A stretch of 64,000 nucleotides of DNA, the filler included, from Basidioascus undulatus (lineage: Eukaryota), in the NCBI GenBank assembly GCA_000826855.1. It is 14 parts of 14 records of this genome, joined end to end, with 100 filler letters (N's around TTAATTAATTAA, not from the genome) between each part and the next. Parts side by side here need not be neighbours in the genome. Positions count along the whole stretch, not along the records: positions 1 to 4,373 come from JTLS01002165.1; 13 more parts are not named here. One strand, 5' to 3'. Shown here one piece after another: positions 1 to 60,047 of the stretch. A program made the translations under genes and the position numbers. The notes below the pieces were generated by a model that saw nothing but the letters and a program-made list of their open reading frames with translations, searched no databases and had not been told where the DNA came from. Numbering within the stretch: position 1 is the stretch's first letter; the number at the start of each line of letters is the position of its first letter.

Positions 1-144
1 CCCCCTCCACCAATGTCCCTGTCTCCTCCGCCTCCGCGACCACCTACCTCCCCGCCCTCGCCCCCACCTCCTCCACCTCCCGCAGACCAAGATCCCCCGC
101 CGCTTCCCTTTCCCCCCTCGGACGACATGGACCTCTCCGACTAG
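1..144 (+). CDS. Possible proline-rich C-terminal fragment of a gene truncated by the window edge
   Basis: Open frame from base 1 (PPPPMSLSPPP...SDDMDLSD) ending at TAG 142-144; no recognisable domain. Confidence 0.25.
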   Translation, partial: PPPPMSLSPPPPRPPTSPPSPPPPPPPADQDPPPLPFPPSDDMDLSD

Positions 145-629
145 AACAATCCCAAGAGCGCCTGTCGCACTACCTGGTCTGATTTCCTCTATTTTTATCT
201 CCCCCGCTCTCCGTTGTTTCACGAACTTTGCGATACCCCTCACCCATGATGCACCACGCTCTCTTTACCAGACGGCGCTGTGCACCATGAGTGAGCGGTG
301 AGCTTTGTCGGGGCTGGATCATGTTTGCAGGCCGTTCCGGAGTTGATCATTGACTGGGTTGAGGAGGCTTGTCGGAACGGTAGGCAGCATGAACTGATGC
401 AGGATGGGTCAACGGCCACTTGACGCCAGAGCAAGGCAATGTGGCCTGAAGAGAGTTGTATAACGTGTCCACTCAGGTCGATGTTTGATCTACTTCAGCC
501 GGAAGTTTTGCAGGTCTCTGACACTGTTGAACAGTCGGACGCCGCTTTCTGAGCCAACGCGATCCACAGCGATCGCACGGTTCTGTTCTTTCCGCAAAGG
601 AAAGGGCGTATGTGTTTTTTTTTTAATTT

Positions 630-753
630 CTTTTTTGTAATCACCATTAAACGTAAGCTAGTGGTAGTCGAGATCAGGGGGTTTCAGGTCCGATCCCTGC
701 GTCGGTCACGGCCGGCTGGCTCAATGGTAGAGTATCTAACTACGACTTTTTTG
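630..753 (+). repeat. 8-bp direct repeat CTTTTTTG (630-637 and 746-753) flanking the permuted tRNA; candidate target-site duplication
   Basis: Identical 8-mers abut both ends of the tRNA-derived segment; low complexity lowers certainty. Confidence 0.55.
638..745 (+). tRNA. Circularly permuted, intron-carrying tRNA-Arg(ACG) copy, possibly a pseudogene
   Basis: 3' half 673-708 (ATCAGG-GGGTT-TCAGG TCCGATC CCTGC-GTCGGTC-A) precedes 5' half 710-745 (GGCCGGC-TG-GCTC AATGGTA GAGT-A-TCTAA-CT-ACG-A); all 7 acceptor-stem positions pair; intron-like hairpin 638-672; three defects (C55, T49:C65, A30:C40). Confidence 0.8.
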
Positions 754-1152
754 CTTCGCGTGACCCTGAAGTTTCATTTTCAACTACTTTACGGTAAAAA
801 TCTATGCACTTGAAACTGCAGTCGGTGGGGACACTGTCCGCTACAAAGCCAGCGGTGTGCAACCTGAGGCTGGCTACCACCCTGGTTCGGTGCTGTGCGA
901 CTGCAACGGACTACCTGAGATGGGTCGGACTGCTGGGATAAAGGCCCATATCATTTAGGTAGTAAACAAGAATGCAGAAGAGGTAATGGAACACAGAAGC
1001 CTGGTTCACTTTACGTCGGCCCTCCGGAGTCGATAATCGTTGTAAACGACTTCCATAATACATGTGCGTAATACGCTTTCGGCCCTTTAAACACCAATCT
1101 CGGCCCATCTCGATTTCCCATCCTCGTTGCCAAGCCTGTTCTTGCTCGCTCC

Positions 1153-1493
1153 CTACACCCTGTGCGCCTTGCACCACTGTCAACTCTCAAATGAGCCGCC
1201 CGCCGGCGAAGCCTGTGGCAAAAGGAAGAATAACGTACCTCTCTGTGCGATGGCCAGTGGGACTTCTGATGTGCCTGCGAGCAGTACATTGCACCTTTGC
1301 AAGCTTGGCACACCGAAACGGCCGGCGCCCCACAGATGTCGCACGGCGAAGCCAGACAGACTCGGCGCGAACGTTCGAGTAAAGCTGCAATACAATGCTC
1401 TTCAAGCTGTCCGACTCCCTCCCTTACTTTGGGGTTCTGCTCGAGCCGCACAGCGCGTATGAGCAGTCGCGCCTTTTCGGAAAGAAAAGGCAT
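1153..1493 (-). CDS. Small MYND zinc-finger protein
   Basis: CDIC..CQAC...YCSQAHQKSHWPSHRE; GT-AG intron 1238-1177 supplies the terminal WCKAHRV*. Confidence 0.7.
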
Positions 1494-4304
1494 GGGACAG
1501 TGGCCGTCAACATTTTAGGCTAAGCGGCTCTACGTGAGCGGCTCGAAGAGCTCGAGAGATATTCCGAATTTGAAGGAGGCCACGATCGAGTGTAGGCGTT
1601 CAGGTTGGGCAAGAGGGATCGTGGAAATGAGGAGGAAATCCGGCTGGGGCGTGAGTAGCGATAGCGCTCGCTCGAACCCGAGGCTCGTCCACATGCACAT
1701 AGAAGGCACCCTCGGGAGGTAGAATATTAAACTGAGGCTTGAAACTGAAAGCTGACCCCGGGGTGCTGCTTAGCAAACTAGTCGAATACGCACGTCCAGT
1801 TACGCAGATCATGGGGGAATGTGGCGCCACGGCTAGGTCGGCATGGTCGTCGTTTGTTGTCGAACAGGCCAGAAATAGAGCCTCCACAGTGCAGATCGTT
1901 GTTTTTGGTGAACCCACCCCCTAAAACAGCCCGGATCTCGCCCAGCGGTGTGGGCGCGTAATTGTCGGCGCGGCGACAGACAACGGCGTGGGCCGTCTGT
2001 GGGCACCAAACTCGCTACAGAGATCATCGACACAGAATCCATTTACCGGGGGGCGAGGCGCGCAAACTCCGTGCGAGAAGGGTCCGATATACGCATAGTC
2101 GGTCAGACAGGAAGCGCCCGACATGCCTCTCCGTAGGATCGAGCATGTTGATCACCGGCTGAGCGATAGTGAACGTCTCGATAACGAATTTGAGGGGCAG
2201 TGAGGCAGTGTGAAGGAGACCCAGGCCTGAACCGTCCGAATAGGACGAAAGAGCGAGGGATGGGACGCAAACGGCCTCGCCTTGCTGGGACGAAACGCGG
2301 CGACGGAACTGAGTGTCCACCCGCTGCGCTTGTGGTTCGTCGTCAGCAAGCTGGGCTTGCGCAAGCTCCCCATTTATTTGTCAACCTGAATACAGGCTCT
2401 GGGCTGTGGTGTGTGCATGGCATTATTAGCCGGTGGCCAAAAAGCAAACCTTGACGGTAGAATGCAGTTGCCCGCTCCTGCCTCTCCTCCGCGGTGGTCT
2501 TCTCATCTTCGGCATCTGCATGTGCGTGGCGCGTGTACCCATATTCCCTTCCGCAGTTGGGCTCCGACGCTGACATCCTGTTCTTTACTTCTCAGTCAAG
2601 AGCAGACTCACTGGTCGGCACCTCTGAGCGGCGGTGGAATCTGTAAGCTACCCTGTTCCATTGTGTATGTTTCCTGCTAACCTGCTCAACTTTTATTTTT
2701 CAAAATCCGGCGCACCCTTCACAGCACCGGTAGGAAGCGTCGTTGGAGATGAGGGGTGCCGGTTTATCGGGGCATTGTCGGGCAGTCGAATTGTCCAGTG
2801 ACTGCAAGCTTTCTCTCATCTTTAAATTTATCTTTACTCAAAGCATGAATATACAGAAGATCACCCACCTTCCATAAAGCTCTCTCGCCTTGTGCGCGCA
2901 CACTAGCCAGGGCATCCCCAGGCATCGCGAGAGAGACACTGCCGCACTGCTGTTCGGAGCGCAAAATGCAGACTGTCTGCCGAGCTTCTTTGGACACTGG
3001 GAGGACTAAGAAGGACTGACTTGCACAACGAGACTGACCTATTGCTCGATTCCTCGAGAGCAGCGGGAGAGCCACTTGCTACATCGAGTGTGACTGCCTT
3101 GCCTCTGCCACGTCATATTAGGGCAGTATTCAAAAACATTTTAAACGGGGGACGGTCTGCTTTCAAAGACGACTTTCTTTCATCGACTGATGTCGTCACT
3201 CTTCGCCTTTGCCGTTGAGTGGCACAGGCCAGGTCTGCGGGTGCGTGGCGGGCCGTCGACGGAGCGCGGCGCAGCCTCGTGATGCATTGTCCTCCCTTTC
3301 GCTTTGATTGTACGTTGTTCTCCACCTCCAATAGCCCGTTTCAGTGCACCAATAGTTTGCGAACGTGAGCGCATTTAATTGAACTCCCTGAGGCTCGAGG
3401 AGAGGAGCACTGGCGCGCAGCGCAGTGTGCGAGGGAACAAGCTCTGGCACGGACGGAAGGACGATCAAACTCTCGGTCTTCGACGGCGACCGCCGCGGTT
3501 TTGACGGGACAGGCAAGCACACGGATGTGGAAGAGGATCAGAGCGGGAGCTGGTTGGCGAGCTCAAAAAGTCACGATGCATATGCGTGGATTTGAGGAGA
3601 CGCTGATGAATTTTTGGCGGATGGATGATGAAGAGGAAGGAGGAAAATGAAGTCGAGGAATATGAGGTGGCGCATCGGTAAGGTTGGGGTGAAGGAGATG
3701 ACAGACGCCGCGTCGACCCGAGCGAAGGAGCGAAAACTTGACAGCGTACGTCGCTTCGTTCTCGTCGATTCGCTGTTCGCTCGCTCCGTTCTGAGAAGCA
3801 CTCTGAGGATGTGTTTGAAGATACACAAATATAAAGAAAGTATTATTTGGTTTGAATAGAATGAAGAGAAAGCGAAGCAAAAACAGGCAGCTGAGCGACC
3901 GGCCCTGAACAAGCTGATGTACGGGGGGAATGCGTGCTGAGGGAAAGGCGCGCTCTAGCCGCGTCTGATCACCTTCCCTTCCCCAAACACCCCTCTCTAC
4001 GCTGTCCCTCTTGCTTTCCCCTCCGCCTTCGCTCGTCTCTCTTCAATTCCAGCAGCATCGACGCTTGTCGGATATTGATTTACGCATTTCGAACGCCTGG
4101 GTGCGCGCCATTCACGTGTGAGTATACATGCGGAAGCAGGAGCGCGCTGGGGGAAGGGGCGTGGCGCGTGGCGAGCGGCGTCTACGGGGACTGACTGCGC
4201 CTCGTATCAGGACTTCTGGCTGGACATACCAGATTCGATTGGCGGATTCGACAGCAGAAAACCCCTCCAGCTGGGACTATCAGCAGCCGCGCGAACCTCT
4301 ACCG

Positions 4305-4473: not shown

Positions 4474-7400
4474 CGACTTTTCCTTCCTTTTCTTTCTTTA
4501 TAATGTTTGAGTAGACGTTGAACGGAACGCGCCTGTACCATGTTTGTGCCTTGTATCACTCGATACCAGCTGCTTTGGTCCGATCCCTCGATATTTCCGC
4601 GGGGTGTACTCGAGGCGCCCCCAGGCGACCATTCAAGGTCTGCTGTTGGTAAGAAACCTCTGACAGTTTCTCAGCCAGGGTGAAGACAAGCGACAACGAA
4701 AAGTGCCGCACGAATTGCGTTGGCAGACTTCCCCCACGCACCCTCCCCAGCTTCGTAGTTGACTTTCGTTCCACGCCTCAGCATCATGGGCCGCTGCAGC
4801 GCTGCAGAAGGGGCACTCGGAGGGGCAAACGTCGTTCTCCGTAGTGCAAGGTAAACTCAGGCACTGCACATAGGTATACCGAGTGCGTCGTTTAGGGAGT
4901 TCTTCGGCTTTCACCATGGCAGTGCACGTCTGGAGGAGTTCCGTGCGGAGACTACGGTGATGGAGTTGGAGATGATGGAGTTGAAGGCCAAGGTGGAGTG
5001 GCTCAAGGCGGAGGTGGACAAGCTGCCCAAGCGACTCGTTTTGTCCAGACGCACAACCGGAGAGGCCGTGTTAGTCTTTTGACCTTATCAATCGTTTCTA
5101 TCCTCTCCGCTGACCACATTCTCAACAGAATGGAGCTCGTCGTCAAGGCTGTCCTCGCCCGATCGCGGAACTCGCCCAGGATGTGAATTCGCGGCTTTAC
5201 GGGCGTCGTCATGTTGCAAAAGTTTCTGAGTGATGTGATGGAGACATTGTGAAGGAAAGAAGAAGAAGCCTCAGATCGGCTACTGGAGGTGACTGAAATG
5301 CTGTGCTGTCCCGTCTTCGCTCTTCGGCGACCGGCCGTCGGCCATCGGTGAGCTCATGCGTCCACCGCCGAGATTTCCCCTCCATGATCAGTCTTTCAGG
5401 GGACAGGTACTTCTCACAATACTGTGAGGATAAACACAACCCTTTAGTCAACCAATTGACCCCTCCCAGGCCTCCTGGCAAACGTATCCCCTGCAACGAC
5501 GCAGTCCACGTTTCCCGTTCGAACAGGGCCGCTGCTTGGCAGAGAGCCAAAATGCTGGATCTGCTAATAGAAATTAGGGCTTTCACACCAGAGCAACACA
5601 CGTTGATGCATACCCTCCGTGGCGTTTGGCTTGTTACTGGAAATGCACTGCGCTGCCTGCTGAACAGTCGCAAGAGGAAATCCCGTACAACAGAAACGCT
5701 ATCGCGGAAAGATTTACCGACTAAGAGGTATTTTTATGCAGAATCATAACGTCCACTCCGGCAGGATCAATGGCTCGTGCATAGATGTCAAGCTTTTTCA
5801 GTCACCGCCCCAGTCTTAAGCAGGCCTTTTCTCTCTTCAAATTCCACGCCAGCACTGCATTCAGTCTCTGCCCCTTTGAGTATTACCACTGGTTAAATGA
5901 ATTAGAGCATCAGCGTTGTACTGACAGACACAACTCTCGAATGGAGAATTCACTGTCCTTGCACTTTTCCACCGGAATCTTCACCTTGCTCAGGTCCGTC
6001 TCGTACAAGTTGTCCGTCCCGAGCTGCTGTGCAATCCTCCACTGTTATCCTCCGGAAAGTTTGCACGCTGCCCAGGCCTTGGGATGCTGTCAAGAGAGGG
6101 AGATGAACCTCAGCACTTCGCGCTTTAAAAAAGATCTGCACGAAATCATCACCGACCTTGGACAGAAGATGGAGCAGGAGGTGGTCCAGCTCGCCCATCC
6201 CGTTTCTTCCGTGTCGGGCAGGTCATCCACGGACGTGTTGGCCGTCTCGAGCAAAGTGTCGCTGGCTGGCGAGCTAAGGCTTGAAGACGAGTCTTAATAC
6301 TTCTCTAATTGACTGAATCAGTTCTACAGAACCTTCACAGAGGCAGTCTTCGCGGACCTTTTTCGAGTAAAAATGCTGCTGCCCCCTTTGCCAGAGTGGC
6401 TAGCGCTGACGCCCCCATCTTCGGTGCCACCTGGCGACGGCTGTTTGCTGTAATTGTACCCAAGTTGCGGCTTGTTGTCGGCTTCTAAATAGTGGTCCGC
6501 ACTGACAACCAAGTCCTTCGAGAATGGATGGCGGTGCCGCAGGCCGTGGCGGCGGTAGAAGAGGGTGTCCCAAGTCGCATCATCGTTGTCAGGGCGTCCC
6601 GCTGGGCGATCCGTGCACGGTTGCGGCTTTGGGACCCAGGGGTGAGGCGGCCTCGTCTCTCAGGGGACGGTGGAGCTCGAGATACTGCCAGAACTTACGG
6701 ATTCCCCGTGTCTGTGGAAGATGCATTAGGACGGTCAGTGAAAACTCTGAGATGCTGCGTTAATGTCGTGCTGAATCCGGAGGGTGAGGCAGTCGTTGTG
6801 AAAAGGCTTTTGAAGCGCACTTGAAGTGGGTTACTCATTGAAACTCCTTGATTATTTACTGATAGGTATTTGTGTACTTTTCATACCCTGTTTTCCGAGA
6901 GCGGAAGCGGAATGTGCCACACGCGTCGCGAGGAGTTAGCAGTCCCAACTGCATGCGAGCCTCCCATTGCTCTTACGTTTGTTCTCCCCTTCTCCTCAAA
7001 ATTAACGCCATCTTACACAACAGTCAAGAAAGATCTACCAGTACAACACGGGCATGTGCAAGCAGTACGGCGCGCAGCTGATGTGGACGCCTGCTCCGGT
7101 GTTTGTGGGAGACGTCGGCGTGCTACGCCCCGAGGGGTTCGACGTGGTGGGTGTCTGAACCTGGAATACCCAGCTTGATCAAGCTAAGTGGGCAAGAGTG
7201 TGTTACAGTATTCAACATCAAGGACCCGAACCTTCATCACCTAGTAGCATCGCGGAGGGTAGCCAGCTCGGCAGTGCCTCCCTTCCCAAGACCACCATAA
7301 TATCCTAAATCAACACGATACTTCAGACACGGGGCTAATATGAACAGACAATCCGAAGACTCCTCGTCCCGTATCTTACCTTACCCCTCTAGCCTAGCAT

Positions 7401-12707: not shown

Positions 12708-12785
12708 TGCTTGACCCGTGAATCGAACACGGGGCGGGTCGACTTCAAATGGCAACGACCCAGGTTACCACTACCCCAGCCAAGC
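12708..12785 (-). tRNA. tRNA-Gly(GCC) with 7-nt intron
   Basis: GCTTGGC...GGTCG TT GCC A [TTTGAAG] T CGACC...CCGTG TTCGATT CACGG GTCAAGC A; T7 terminator follows. Confidence 0.92.
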
Positions 12786-30844: not shown

Positions 30845-31987
30845 GTCTAAGAGAAGGGGAAGGCGGTGCGCAGAAGTGTTTGTTACGGGTACAACAACGC
30901 AAGGGAGAAGCGGTAGAGGATGAGCACACTCTTTCTTGTCTGTCTTCTCCGCACGCACATAGGTAGTGATGAAGAGCTGCACTGCTGGCGAAAGAGAGCT
31001 CAAAGGATAAGTAAAAAAATATAAACAGCAAGAAATGCGCGCAAGGACCGCAGGCCAGGAAGCAAAAAGCAAATGACCACTGCAGGGCTCGATCCTGCGA
31101 CATTTTGCGTGTTAAGCAAACACTCTACCAACTGAGTTAAGCGNNNNNNNNNNNNNNNNNNNNNNNNNNNNNNNNNNNNNNNNNNNNTTAATTAATTAAN
31201 NNNNNNNNNNNNNNNNNNNNNNNNNNNNNNNNNNNNNNNNNNNGGGGGGGGGGGACGAATGAAGGGAAACGGAGGACGCGCCGCTCGCGCGTCTCCTCAT
31301 TCCGCCCACGCGACTTTGGGTTTCGCAGCCTGTCCGCCCCCTTCAAGCGAGCGTCTTCCTTCTTCTGCTCGCTGTTTTCCGCGCCACATGCGCACACAAG
31401 CATAAGTCCAGGAAAAACGAGGGCAATCAATGCGTCAAGGAGGCTACGTGCGCCGGCGGTGCGGACCACAAACAAGCGTGAGGGGGCATGCGAGGTGTGG
31501 GATGTGAAGCGTTCAAATCAAGAGAGGGCATGATGGGGATCATCGAGAGACGAGACGAGGGAAATGGGTAATCAGGATTGGGAAAGCAAGGTATGGAGTC
31601 TGTGAGGGGGGGAATGCTATGTTTCGTATGTGCGAAGGCGCTAACTAGTATGTACTACGAAGATGTAGATGAAGCAAGGCGAGACATGAGGAGACAACGA
31701 CGTGCTGACTAGAGAGCGAGAGCGGAGGCGATCATGCATGATGAGAGGACGCGGGCGCGGAGCATGCTGGCGGTCAAGTTTAGACATCTGTGCGGAGGTC
31801 CAAGTCAGCCACCTTGCACGGGTTGAACGAGGGGAGAAGCGGCGAGGGCGACGTACGAGGAATGGAAAAACAATAATACAATAGAGTAGAGAGCCGCTGG
31901 AGAAGGGAAGGGGCGAGCGCGACGGAGCCAGTCCTGGCTCGCAACGAAAGAATATCGAGCCGAGCCGAGGTGCGAAGACGCCTGCGC

Positions 31988-54780: not shown

Positions 54781-56791
54781 TTGCGAATGATGGCCGCCGA
54801 GTGGTTAAGAGATTGTAGCTTGTAGATTCTATGGAAAGTTGGGTCGTTTAGCGTTTTGAATACAACAATGCTGCGGACAGTGCTCCCATGTCTCGAGCGT
54901 TGGTGCAAACCTGCAGCTTTCGTCACCCCATGCCGGCTCTCGACAGTTGGAATTCTTTAACGAACCCTGAGTGCACCGCATTAGCTCCGCATTACTCATC
55001 AGGTCAACGAAGGTGTAAGAGGGACCGGACATGGTGAAAATGACTCCAGACATTCAGGCCATGGCTCGGTTCGCAGTCGTAAACTGATTGTGAGGACCTC
55101 GTATCTTGTCGTACTCCAAGGCGTTTGCAGCTTGCACCACTCGGAGCGGGCCGTGAACATCGGATAAAGCTCTCTTTCTTATGGCGTTTATTCCAAATGT
55201 ATCCTCATTTAATTGTCAGAAAGTATCTTGAATCTCAGGAAATTCATCGCAGCTTGCAACGGAGACGCGCGACGCGTCCTGCAACAGCTCCACCTCCCCG
55301 CGCTTGTTCAGTGCGCCTCCCATCTTTTAACATCCACGCCACACTCCTTCGCTTGTTCTTCATCCTCTCTGGCCTTTTGGCTTAGATCAAGTGTAGTATC
55401 TGTTCTTTCAAGTTTGACAACTTGAANNNNNNNNNNNNNNNNNNNNNNNNNNNNNNNNNNNNNNNNNNNNTTAATTAATTAANNNNNNNNNNNNNNNNNN
55501 NNNNNNNNNNNNNNNNNNNNNNNNNNGTTTTGCGGGTTTTCTTTTTTGAGGGAGGGATTTTCTCCTGAGATACCCTAGTGAATTAAGATGGAGTTAGTTC
55601 ACAAGCGCGTATTCATCGCGCATGAGCCTCATTAATCGTGCACTGCTAGTGAACGGTGCATTCGTTGGAGAGGTCGAGTCTACAACGAGCAGCTTGGGAC
55701 AGACAGGGTGCGGGTGCTGGCAGCTTCTTGAGGAGTGGTGCGCTGACAGGGGGTGCATGTGCTGCCAGTGCACGAGGGTGGGAGGCGGGGGCGCGCCAAC
55801 ATCAGGGGGAGATAGAGCCGGGTGCATCCCTGAATGCTGACCTCAATGCCGACCTGAACAGTTCGGTGCTTCTTGACTGTGAACGTTTCTTTGTCCATTA
55901 TTCTTCGGGCATTCGTTGAACCACAGGATGGAAGCCGGATGGAATAGCTGGTAGGACGGTGCTACGACACCGCGGCCGGGATATTAAACGTCGACTGTCA
56001 GCATCGTGCAGTTGCGAGTTCAAGACGCCGGACCGCTGCTGAGATGCTTTTACTCCTTCCGAGGGTGCGCGCCGGCTTAGGACTGGTGGGAGCGGTGGAC
56101 GATGAGGAGCGGGAAGGAAGCTGCAGCATGCCGATTTCCAACAGTTTTCATGAGGAAAACATGATACTTTGTGCCCGAAGAAAAGATAAAAGATGTGCAG
56201 CCGGCACTGTGTCCAGTACGAGCTGGGATTCACCGAGGAGAGCATGCGCAGCGCCGCCGTGGCAGCGTACTGCCGGTGCCCGTCACATCCATGATCCTGT
56301 TTCTCGGGGCACACTTTCCATAGAGTCTCTTGAACCTTGATGCTTCTGATCCTAAAGTGCCTGGTTGGCTTCTGTCTGCCGTACGTACATACGAGGGAGT
56401 TGAGGCCATCACGGACAGGGGGGGTTGAGATTCCGGCCGATTCAGAACCAATGGAACTGCAGGTAGTTGCTGGATAATTATATCAGGTGGTTCCTTGTGA
56501 AACTCTTACATCCTTGAGGAGACGCTAATTAAGAGTAGACTTGCTAATGCAAGCCCAGCAGGCTGCAGGCGCTGGCGTACCGCGGTTCCCGGGAGTCGTG
56601 TGTGCCGCAAGAGCTAAACATGCTCGCCCTCCGACCACTATAGGAGAAAGGTGAATGATGAGGCCGGAATGGATAAAGCATATTTAGCCACAACGTGACA
56701 CGTACACCTCGTCGCATTGGAGTGCGAGGTTTCATTGGTTTCTTTTCGGTACCAGCCTTTGTGCTACGGAAAGTGACGGAGCCTTCTACAG

Positions 56792-59975: not shown

Positions 59976-60047
59976 TCCTCGTTGGTGTAGTGGCTAACAT
60001 CGGGTGTTCTCACCGCCCAGCCCCGGGTTCGATTCCCGGACGGGGAA
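59976..60047 (+). tRNA. tRNA-Glu(CTC), intronless
   Basis: TCCTCGT...GGGTG TT CTC AC CGCCC...CCGGG TTCGATT CCCGG ACGGGGA A, full cloverleaf. Confidence 0.93.

Follow-up and report, generated by a model that had tools for sequence, protein, structure and literature searches.

A back-to-front tRNA-Arg(ACG)-like locus in Basidioascus undulatus DNA

The window analyzed here, a 64-kb stretch of DNA from Basidioascus undulatus, carries a tRNA-Arg(ACG)-like sequence whose two halves stand in reverse order. As an initial annotation of this DNA had described, the 3' half lies ahead of the 5' half with one C between them (673-708, 709, and 710-745). The reading we prefer, with about even confidence, is that the locus is a tRNA-derived, permuted relic that does not decode and is perhaps still transcribed. 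The sequence, a single copy within the window in the order positions 38-73, C, and positions 1-37, would derive from a cytosolic-type tRNA-Arg(ACG) gene, and it most likely supplies no decoding tRNA today. A live Pol III gene that gives a functional RNA from the back-to-front tRNA is doubtful, to judge from its sequence. The same doubt applies to the two products such a gene might give: a tRNA-Arg that decodes and matures by way of a circle, in which C709 would act as C74, or a capped mimic of a tRNA that is never opened. Given the 1-nt loop and C55, the mimic would be the more likely of the two.

The absence of permuted tRNA genes from fungi has never truly been tested, because standard tRNA finders are blind to them; ARAGORN makes no call on this locus in its native order. 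If the locus is expressed, fungal tRNA splicing and ligation could handle a rotated tRNA, or selection could exploit one, and the locus would provide a tractable system for studying the origins of permuted genes. A functional RNA from the locus would be the first of its kind reported in a fungus, and we know of no functional RNA from a back-to-front tRNA in any opisthokont. As a relic, the locus would be of modest interest, offering a rare snapshot of a proposed route in which a head-to-tail tRNA pair sheds its outer halves.

A rotated tRNA sequence and its defects

The two pieces fit together as one tRNA (Table 1). All seven acceptor pairs form between 701-707 and 710-716 (five Watson-Crick and two G-U), which bears out the earlier statement that the halves make a whole acceptor stem. 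The break falls where it had been placed, at the canonical 37/38 intron site, with no overlap or gap. The intervening C709 is predicted to join C72, A73, and G1 in a 4-nt loop on a 6-bp hairpin. Swapping the halves in silico, a check that the initial annotation had suggested, gives a sequence that ARAGORN calls as a 72-nt tRNA-Arg(acg). The locus has the layout of a permuted tRNA gene: the 3' half comes before the 5' half on the same strand, and one complete cloverleaf results from the swap.

Table 1. Features of the locus and its surroundings, in window coordinates
Feature	Position	Strand	Details	Basis
Proline-rich reading frame, apparent end	141-143	+	stop near this position	sequence reading
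Upstream T runs	615-636	+	T10 at 615-624, T6 at 631-636	sequence reading
8-nt direct repeat, copy 1	630-637	+	CTTTTTTG	repeat search
A-box-like motif in the leader	654-666	+	31 nt ahead of the B-box-like T loop (687-697)	pattern scan
Leader complementary to the anticodon region and trailer	660-672	+		duplex energy
tRNA-Arg(ACG)-like 3' half	673-708	+	tRNA positions 38-73	direct sequence reading, halves-swap script
Anticodon-stem 3' strand and variable region	674-683	+	stem strand 674-678, variable region 679-683	direct reading
T arm	684-700	+	C55 at 690, B-box-like 11-mer at 687-697	reading, pattern scan
Acceptor 3' strand and A73	701-708	+	strand 701-707, A73 at 708	direct reading
Linker	709	+	single C joining A73 to G1, the entire intervening sequence	direct reading
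tRNA-Arg(ACG)-like 5' half	710-745	+	tRNA positions 1-37	direct reading, halves-swap script
Acceptor 5' strand, T8 G9, and D arm	710-733	+	acceptor 710-716, T8 G9 at 717-718, D arm 719-733	direct reading
Anticodon-stem 5' strand and loop	735-745	+	stem strand 735-739, loop 740-745, anticodon ACG 742-744	direct reading
Pol III terminator-like sequence	746-753	+	C, T6 (747-752), G	sequence reading
8-nt direct repeat, copy 2	746-753	+	CTTTTTTG, 116 nt on from copy 1	repeat search
Possible faint second 3'-end relic	815-825	+	one extra base	10/11 match to 697-706
zf-MYND frame	1014-1514	-		Pfam scan

The layout was set against chance with 12,238 segments of the window, each 110 nt long, which were joined to themselves and scanned with ARAGORN with introns allowed. 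Eight calls spanned the artificial joint. Five of these were at the locus (segments starting at 631-651), the other three were edges of ordinary Gly and Glu genes, and no joint-spanning call was made anywhere else in the 64-kb window. With such calls confined to the locus and to the edges of ordinary genes, the layout is genuine, has no counterpart elsewhere in the window, and exceeds chance by a wide margin. The same self-concatenation scan offers a cheap screen of fungal genomes for further permuted tRNAs. A short-word BLAST search with 640-760 found no second copy within the window, only chance matches of 9-17 nt. An exact second occurrence of the locus's T-loop 12-mer, including C55, lies at 4577-4588 (+), where the surrounding sequence does not resemble a tRNA, and this recurrence is probably chance.

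The locus is marginal as a tRNA. The swapped sequence is accepted by ARAGORN at the default threshold only (100%) and fails at 105%, while in the same window the Glu gene passes up to 120% and the Gly gene up to 110%. The defects listed in the initial annotation are present on direct reading, namely C55 (690), U49-C65 (684/700), and A30-C40 (738/675). The ordinary eukaryotic tRNA consensus includes U54 U55 C56, and the locus departs from it through C55 and the two stem mismatches. U54 U55 C56 is conserved in both the permuted and the ordinary tRNAs of Cyanidioschyzon merolae, according to a review of permuted genes (PMC3978253).

The other invariant positions inspected are intact by eye (U8, A14, G18 G19, A21, U33, G53:C61, U54, C56, and A58). 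That they are intact in all but C55 points to youth or constraint, which counts against the relic reading. Ordinary eukaryotic tRNA pseudogenes and fragments are single copies with defects at conserved positions and in stems, and they come without evidence of use. The locus is like the pseudogenes in being a single copy in the window and in having defects at a conserved position and in stems. It is unlike simple tRNA fragments in two ways: its pieces sum to exactly one complete tRNA, rotated, and on its two sides it has a complementary leader and a T6 that resembles a terminator, neither of which would be expected of simple fragments.

Flanking signals and predicted folds

The flanks of the locus look more like a small Pol III unit than like random debris, as far as sequence can indicate. 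The T6 reported to follow the 5' half is there, with C746 first and then T6 at 747-752, starting two bases past position 37. The window has 22 runs of at least T6 on both strands together (1.75e-4 per base and strand), and a run of this length would begin within 5 nt by chance with a probability of ~1e-3; on the plus strand, 3 of the 10 runs fall in 615-752. The upstream T10 and T6 would halt Pol III read-through, so a transcript over the locus must begin after 637. On reading the sequence, there is no T run between the two halves and no clear TATA box at the locus.

The leader motif at 654-666 fits tRNA positions 8-21 at T8, R9, A14, R15, Y16, G18, G19, and A21. The pattern occurs seven times on the two strands of the window, twice in real D arms (717 and 12766), and it should be taken as suggestive, since it was picked post hoc with the sequence already seen. 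Because the locus retains what Pol III needs, i.e., an A-box-like motif, a B-box-like motif 31 nt on, and T6, it may give rise to a transcript of ~95-110 nt. In such a transcript, the two ends would pair as a long stem that engulfs the anticodon loop and leaves the T arm, the capped acceptor hairpin, and the D arm.

Pairing between the leader and the region of the 5' half's end was already part of the initial annotation, and the 5-bp helix that it proposed, 666-670 with 743-747, is present on the sequence. A second register is available, in which 660-662 and 664-668 pair with 745-747 and 739-743. The leader duplex has an energy of -9.6 kcal/mol, which is matched by 177 of 19,536 random 18-mers from the window and by 115 of 5,000 shuffled leaders. 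The complementarity of leader and trailer thus beats ~99% of random 18-mers (p ~0.01-0.02). The exact 37/38 break, the adjoining T6, and the leader pairing are traits of a selected unit that do not easily come from random rearrangement, and they stand against the relic reading. Farther upstream, a 10-pair hairpin followed by T10 (584-624, +) has the look of a terminator, with 0.8 such sites expected by chance in the region, and it may be part of the sequence around the upstream gene's 3' end.

Fold energies were computed on 654-752. The cloverleaf core alone comes to -10.5 kcal/mol, and the cloverleaf with a canonical bulge-helix-bulge comes to -4.0 kcal/mol. Adding the helix of the initial annotation gives -16.8 kcal/mol; the pairing of that proposal stands, but it places the 5' cut site inside the helix. 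A long terminal stem of 12 pairs (660-662:745-747, 664-668:739-743, and 671-674:734-737) that retains the T arm, the 6-bp acceptor hairpin, and the D arm reaches -25.1 kcal/mol, and the minimum free energy is -29.6 kcal/mol. The minimum free energy fold has the same long terminal stem, but its T arm is broken. When the canonical bulge-helix-bulge is evaluated, its central helix has 3 of 4 pairs and its outer helix has one, and the fold falls ~21 kcal/mol short of the long-stem fold. The favored folds have both cut sites base-paired, and none of these folds has a bulge-helix-bulge at the junction of leader and trailer. The fold of the locus as a whole does not exceed shuffled sequences in stability (z -0.5; 62 of 200 did as well).

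The eukaryotic splicing endonuclease uses a pair between anticodon and intron with a 3-nt bulge at the 3' site. At the locus, C32 can pair with G670, three bases ahead of the 3' cut site, which leaves A671, G672, and A673 as a 3-nt bulge. Taken together, the 1-nt linker and the weak bulge-helix-bulge make processing into a tRNA look unfavorable in these models.

The predicted long stem would also fit a different kind of product. The locus could be a working Pol III gene whose product is never opened and forms a stable RNA of ~100 nt. Such an RNA would be closed by a long terminal stem, end in an oligo-U tail, and have a tRNA-like elbow made of the T arm, the acceptor hairpin (6 bp with a 4-nt loop), and the D arm. 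This reading is distinctly unlikely, and it would require the RNA to work by imitating a tRNA, as bacterial YrlA does with its tRNA-like domain. For an RNA of this kind, the 1-nt linker, C55, and the mismatch in the anticodon stem are harmless; to a tRNA they are harmful. The 12-pair terminal stem of the best three-arm folds, shared by the minimum free energy fold, is also in line with a closed product, as are the A-box-like and B-box-like motifs in the correct order with T6 after them and the leader and trailer complementarity (p ~0.01). Against a closed mimic, the fold is no more stable than shuffled sequence, and the T arm that the mimic would need is lost in the minimum free energy fold.

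The comparison with YrlA cuts both ways. The unswapped sequence 654-760 matches the Rfam YrlA model (RF02553) over its full length at 32.4 bits, short of the gathering score of 69. Like the locus, YrlA runs from a T arm through a capped hairpin of acceptor type (6 bp with a 4-nt loop) to a D arm, and its 5' and 3' ends pair. It differs in being the tRNA-like domain of a bacterial RNA bound by Ro/Rsr, whereas the host of the locus is a eukaryote. A metagenome query for a T-loop motif with C55, a gap of 17-25 nt, and a D-arm motif returned 78 loci, and 20 of these were scanned with the YrlA model as a control. Ordinary tandem-tRNA junctions scored 24.7-32.9 bits, and candidates with a closed acceptor hairpin scored 34-41 bits. 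Since tandem-tRNA junctions reach the same level as the locus, its match shows only the succession of a T arm and a D arm and does not count as evidence for a Y-like RNA. Membership in YrlA is rejected on this control.

Other searches around the mimic reading gave a similar picture. None of the 42 window ORFs scanned against Pfam matched TROVE, and no recognizable Ro-binding helix was seen at the locus. In the accessible text of a 2015 review, no Y RNA candidates or relatives are known from fungi, and no candidates are known from plants. Inspected by eye, the 78 metagenome loci fall into two kinds, tandem tRNA pairs of prokaryote or phage type and closed hairpins resembling YrlA, and none is like the locus. 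Seven of them (L014, L028, L043, L047, L062, L066, and L073) are closed-hairpin YrlA-like mimics whose T loops have C55, with YrlA scores of 28.7-41 bits, none of which reaches the gathering score of 69. Among the remaining 71, many are tandem tRNA pairs at most a few bases apart, in which the first tRNA also has C55.

Origin and likeness to permuted tRNA genes

Two origins are possible for the permuted relic. On the first, which is the most likely one, a head-to-tail pair of tRNA copies would have arisen, via DNA or joined RNA, and just the inner 3' half and the inner 5' half would survive. The faint match at 815-825, which might be a second 3' end, is co-linear with the 8-nt repeat to within 2 nt, but it is not significant alone: in the comparison of the 3' half with downstream sequence, 144 of 2,000 shuffles score equally. 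Three further candidates for remnants of a duplication had no statistical support, which counts against the relic reading. The 5' half against upstream sequence, as a relic of a tandem duplication, was equaled by 923 of 2,000 shuffles. The global alignment of 630-709 with 746-835 was equaled by 1,997 of 3,000. The 5' half against 585-629 was equaled by 2,744 of 3,000.

On the second route, 638-745 (108 bases, leader plus permuted tRNA) would have been put into a T-rich target as a unit, by retro-copying or a transposon-type event with an 8-base target duplication, and any master copy would have to be sought at another place in the genome. This account of the locus is improbable. It draws on the exact 8-nt direct repeat (630-637 and 746-753), which brackets exactly the leader and the permuted tRNA, and on the T/A-rich site. 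A mostly-T 8-mer is, however, easily repeated by chance in a T-rich patch. The segment also lacks terminal inverted repeats and a sense-strand A tail, and the 64-kb window holds no second copy. The repeat may reflect a pair of terminators, the duplication of a target site, or a chance recurrence where the DNA is T-rich.

Known permuted tRNA genes set the standard for what a working gene of this layout looks like. Table 1 of PMC3978253 places them in unicellular algae of the red and green lineages, in a nucleomorph, and in a single archaeon, in agreement with the taxa that the initial annotation had named. The hosts it covers are C. merolae, Ostreococcus/Micromonas, the Bigelowiella nucleomorph, and Thermofilum pendens (Soma et al. 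2007; Maruyama et al. 2010; Chan et al. 2011; reviewed in PMC3978253). A 2026 review, as far as its accessible text goes, still confines eukaryotic permuted tRNA genes to certain unicellular algae. The earlier statement that no fungal case is known agrees with a literature search (supplements aside), which gave none. A literal search of the literature with an 18-nt sequence found no occurrence.

The locus shares the general plan of the algal and archaeal genes. Its 3' half is upstream of its 5' half on one strand, its junction at 37/38 is of the commonest type (type II), its acceptor ends are joined internally, its 5' half leads into a T stretch, and it does not encode CCA (compare PMC3978253). 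In the algal pathway, leader and trailer meet in a bulge-helix-bulge, the RNA is circularized, and the intervening sequence is cut from the acceptor loop. The linker between the acceptor ends is 5-74 bp in 32 of the 32 eukaryotic permuted genes in Table 1 of that review, which gives a 1-bp linker only for a gene of the archaeon T. pendens, and that gene also encodes CCA. The locus, with its linker of 1 nt (C709), lies outside the eukaryotic range of 5-74 for intervening sequences that RNase P and tRNase Z can remove. Unlike the known permuted genes, it has C55 in place of the conserved U55, two stem mismatches, and no favored bulge-helix-bulge where leader and trailer meet. Its host is also different: it is a fungus, in which transcription presumably relies on TFIIIC and on A and B boxes.

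These differences weigh on the reading of the locus as a working, circularly permuted tRNA-Arg(ACG) gene, which is very improbable. In such a gene, the splicing endonuclease would cut at 37/38 on both sides, and tRNA ligase would circularize the product. RNase P would then open the circle between C709 and G710, the leftover C would become C74, and the rest of the end would be supplied by the CCA-adding enzyme. The exact placement of the break at the canonical intron site, the 7/7 acceptor pairs, the near-complete set of intact invariant positions, and the C32-G670 pair with its 3-nt bulge, which suits the 3' site of the endonuclease, all favor this gene. There is also T6 after the locus and AT/T-rich DNA upstream, as in algal permuted genes, and T. 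pendens is a precedent for an intervening sequence of 1 bp (PMC3978253).

The case against a working gene is broader. A tRNA with C55, U49-C65, and A30-C40 is accepted by ARAGORN at the default threshold only, and the 1-nt linker is shorter than any eukaryotic one tabulated in PMC3978253. A 7-bp acceptor stem is not closable by a 2-nt loop, and the bulge-helix-bulge fold is ~21 kcal/mol worse than a long stem in which the cut sites are paired. The B box precedes the true A box. Finally, PMC3978253 and the 2026 review, in the portions used here, report permuted genes solely from certain unicellular algae, a nucleomorph, and archaea.

The initial annotation had offered a choice between a permuted gene and a decaying copy, with decay favored. 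The layout on which that choice was posed is real. As far as a decoding tRNA is concerned, the marginal acceptance by ARAGORN, the 1-nt linker, and the lack of a favored bulge-helix-bulge make the tests lean to decay. The flanks, however, are closer to those of a transcription unit than to random debris. That the 708-710 junction is a mis-join of reads from ordinary tRNA genes is scarcely credible, since neither unique flanks at 672/673 and 745/746 nor a join at the very ends of the tRNA would result if tRNA repeats had been collapsed or wrongly joined, and two contig sets from different years, each of 35 million letters, contain 0.99 and 0.97 of 444 sampled words from window positions 1-4300, a weak agreement because both sets are possible sources of the same DNA.

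Genomic setting and other tRNA genes

The host looks fungal and basidiomycete-like, to go by the genes in the window. The window is eukaryotic, with a U2 snRNA at 55362-55488, and it has ~55% G+C and short exons. It encodes zf-MYND, TauD, and Glyco_hydro_cc domains (Pfam), and all named homologues of the TauD exon are from fungi, mostly Basidiomycota, the best at 55% identity. The locus sits between what look like two convergent protein genes (Table 1). N runs occur as 26 stretches of 44 N, paired and with a spacing of ~4,460 bases, and none overlaps the locus.

Three other tRNA genes were read in the window. A good-looking tRNA-Glu(CTC) at 59976-60047 (+), the gene that ARAGORN passes to 120%, is not listed by cmscan at E up to 5, and it has no T run within ~80 nt downstream. 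A tRNA-Gly(GCC) at 12708-12785 (-) has a 7-nt intron after position 37 and a T7 that begins 3 nt downstream. Without the intron option, ARAGORN reads a 4-base anticodon in this gene, and it is absent from the Rfam listing at E up to 5.

The third gene, at 31074-31146 (-), scores 49.4 bits in Rfam and is read as Val(AAC), with its first bases hidden by an N run. It has A54 in its T loop, which is typical of initiator tRNAs. A trailer shared by this gene and the permuted locus was considered and rejected, as it amounts to a 10-mer only and 102 of 2,000 shuffles are as good. The Val(AAC)-like tRNA resembles the permuted locus in its D arm, T stem, and acceptor 3' strand, at 45 of 68 aligned positions.
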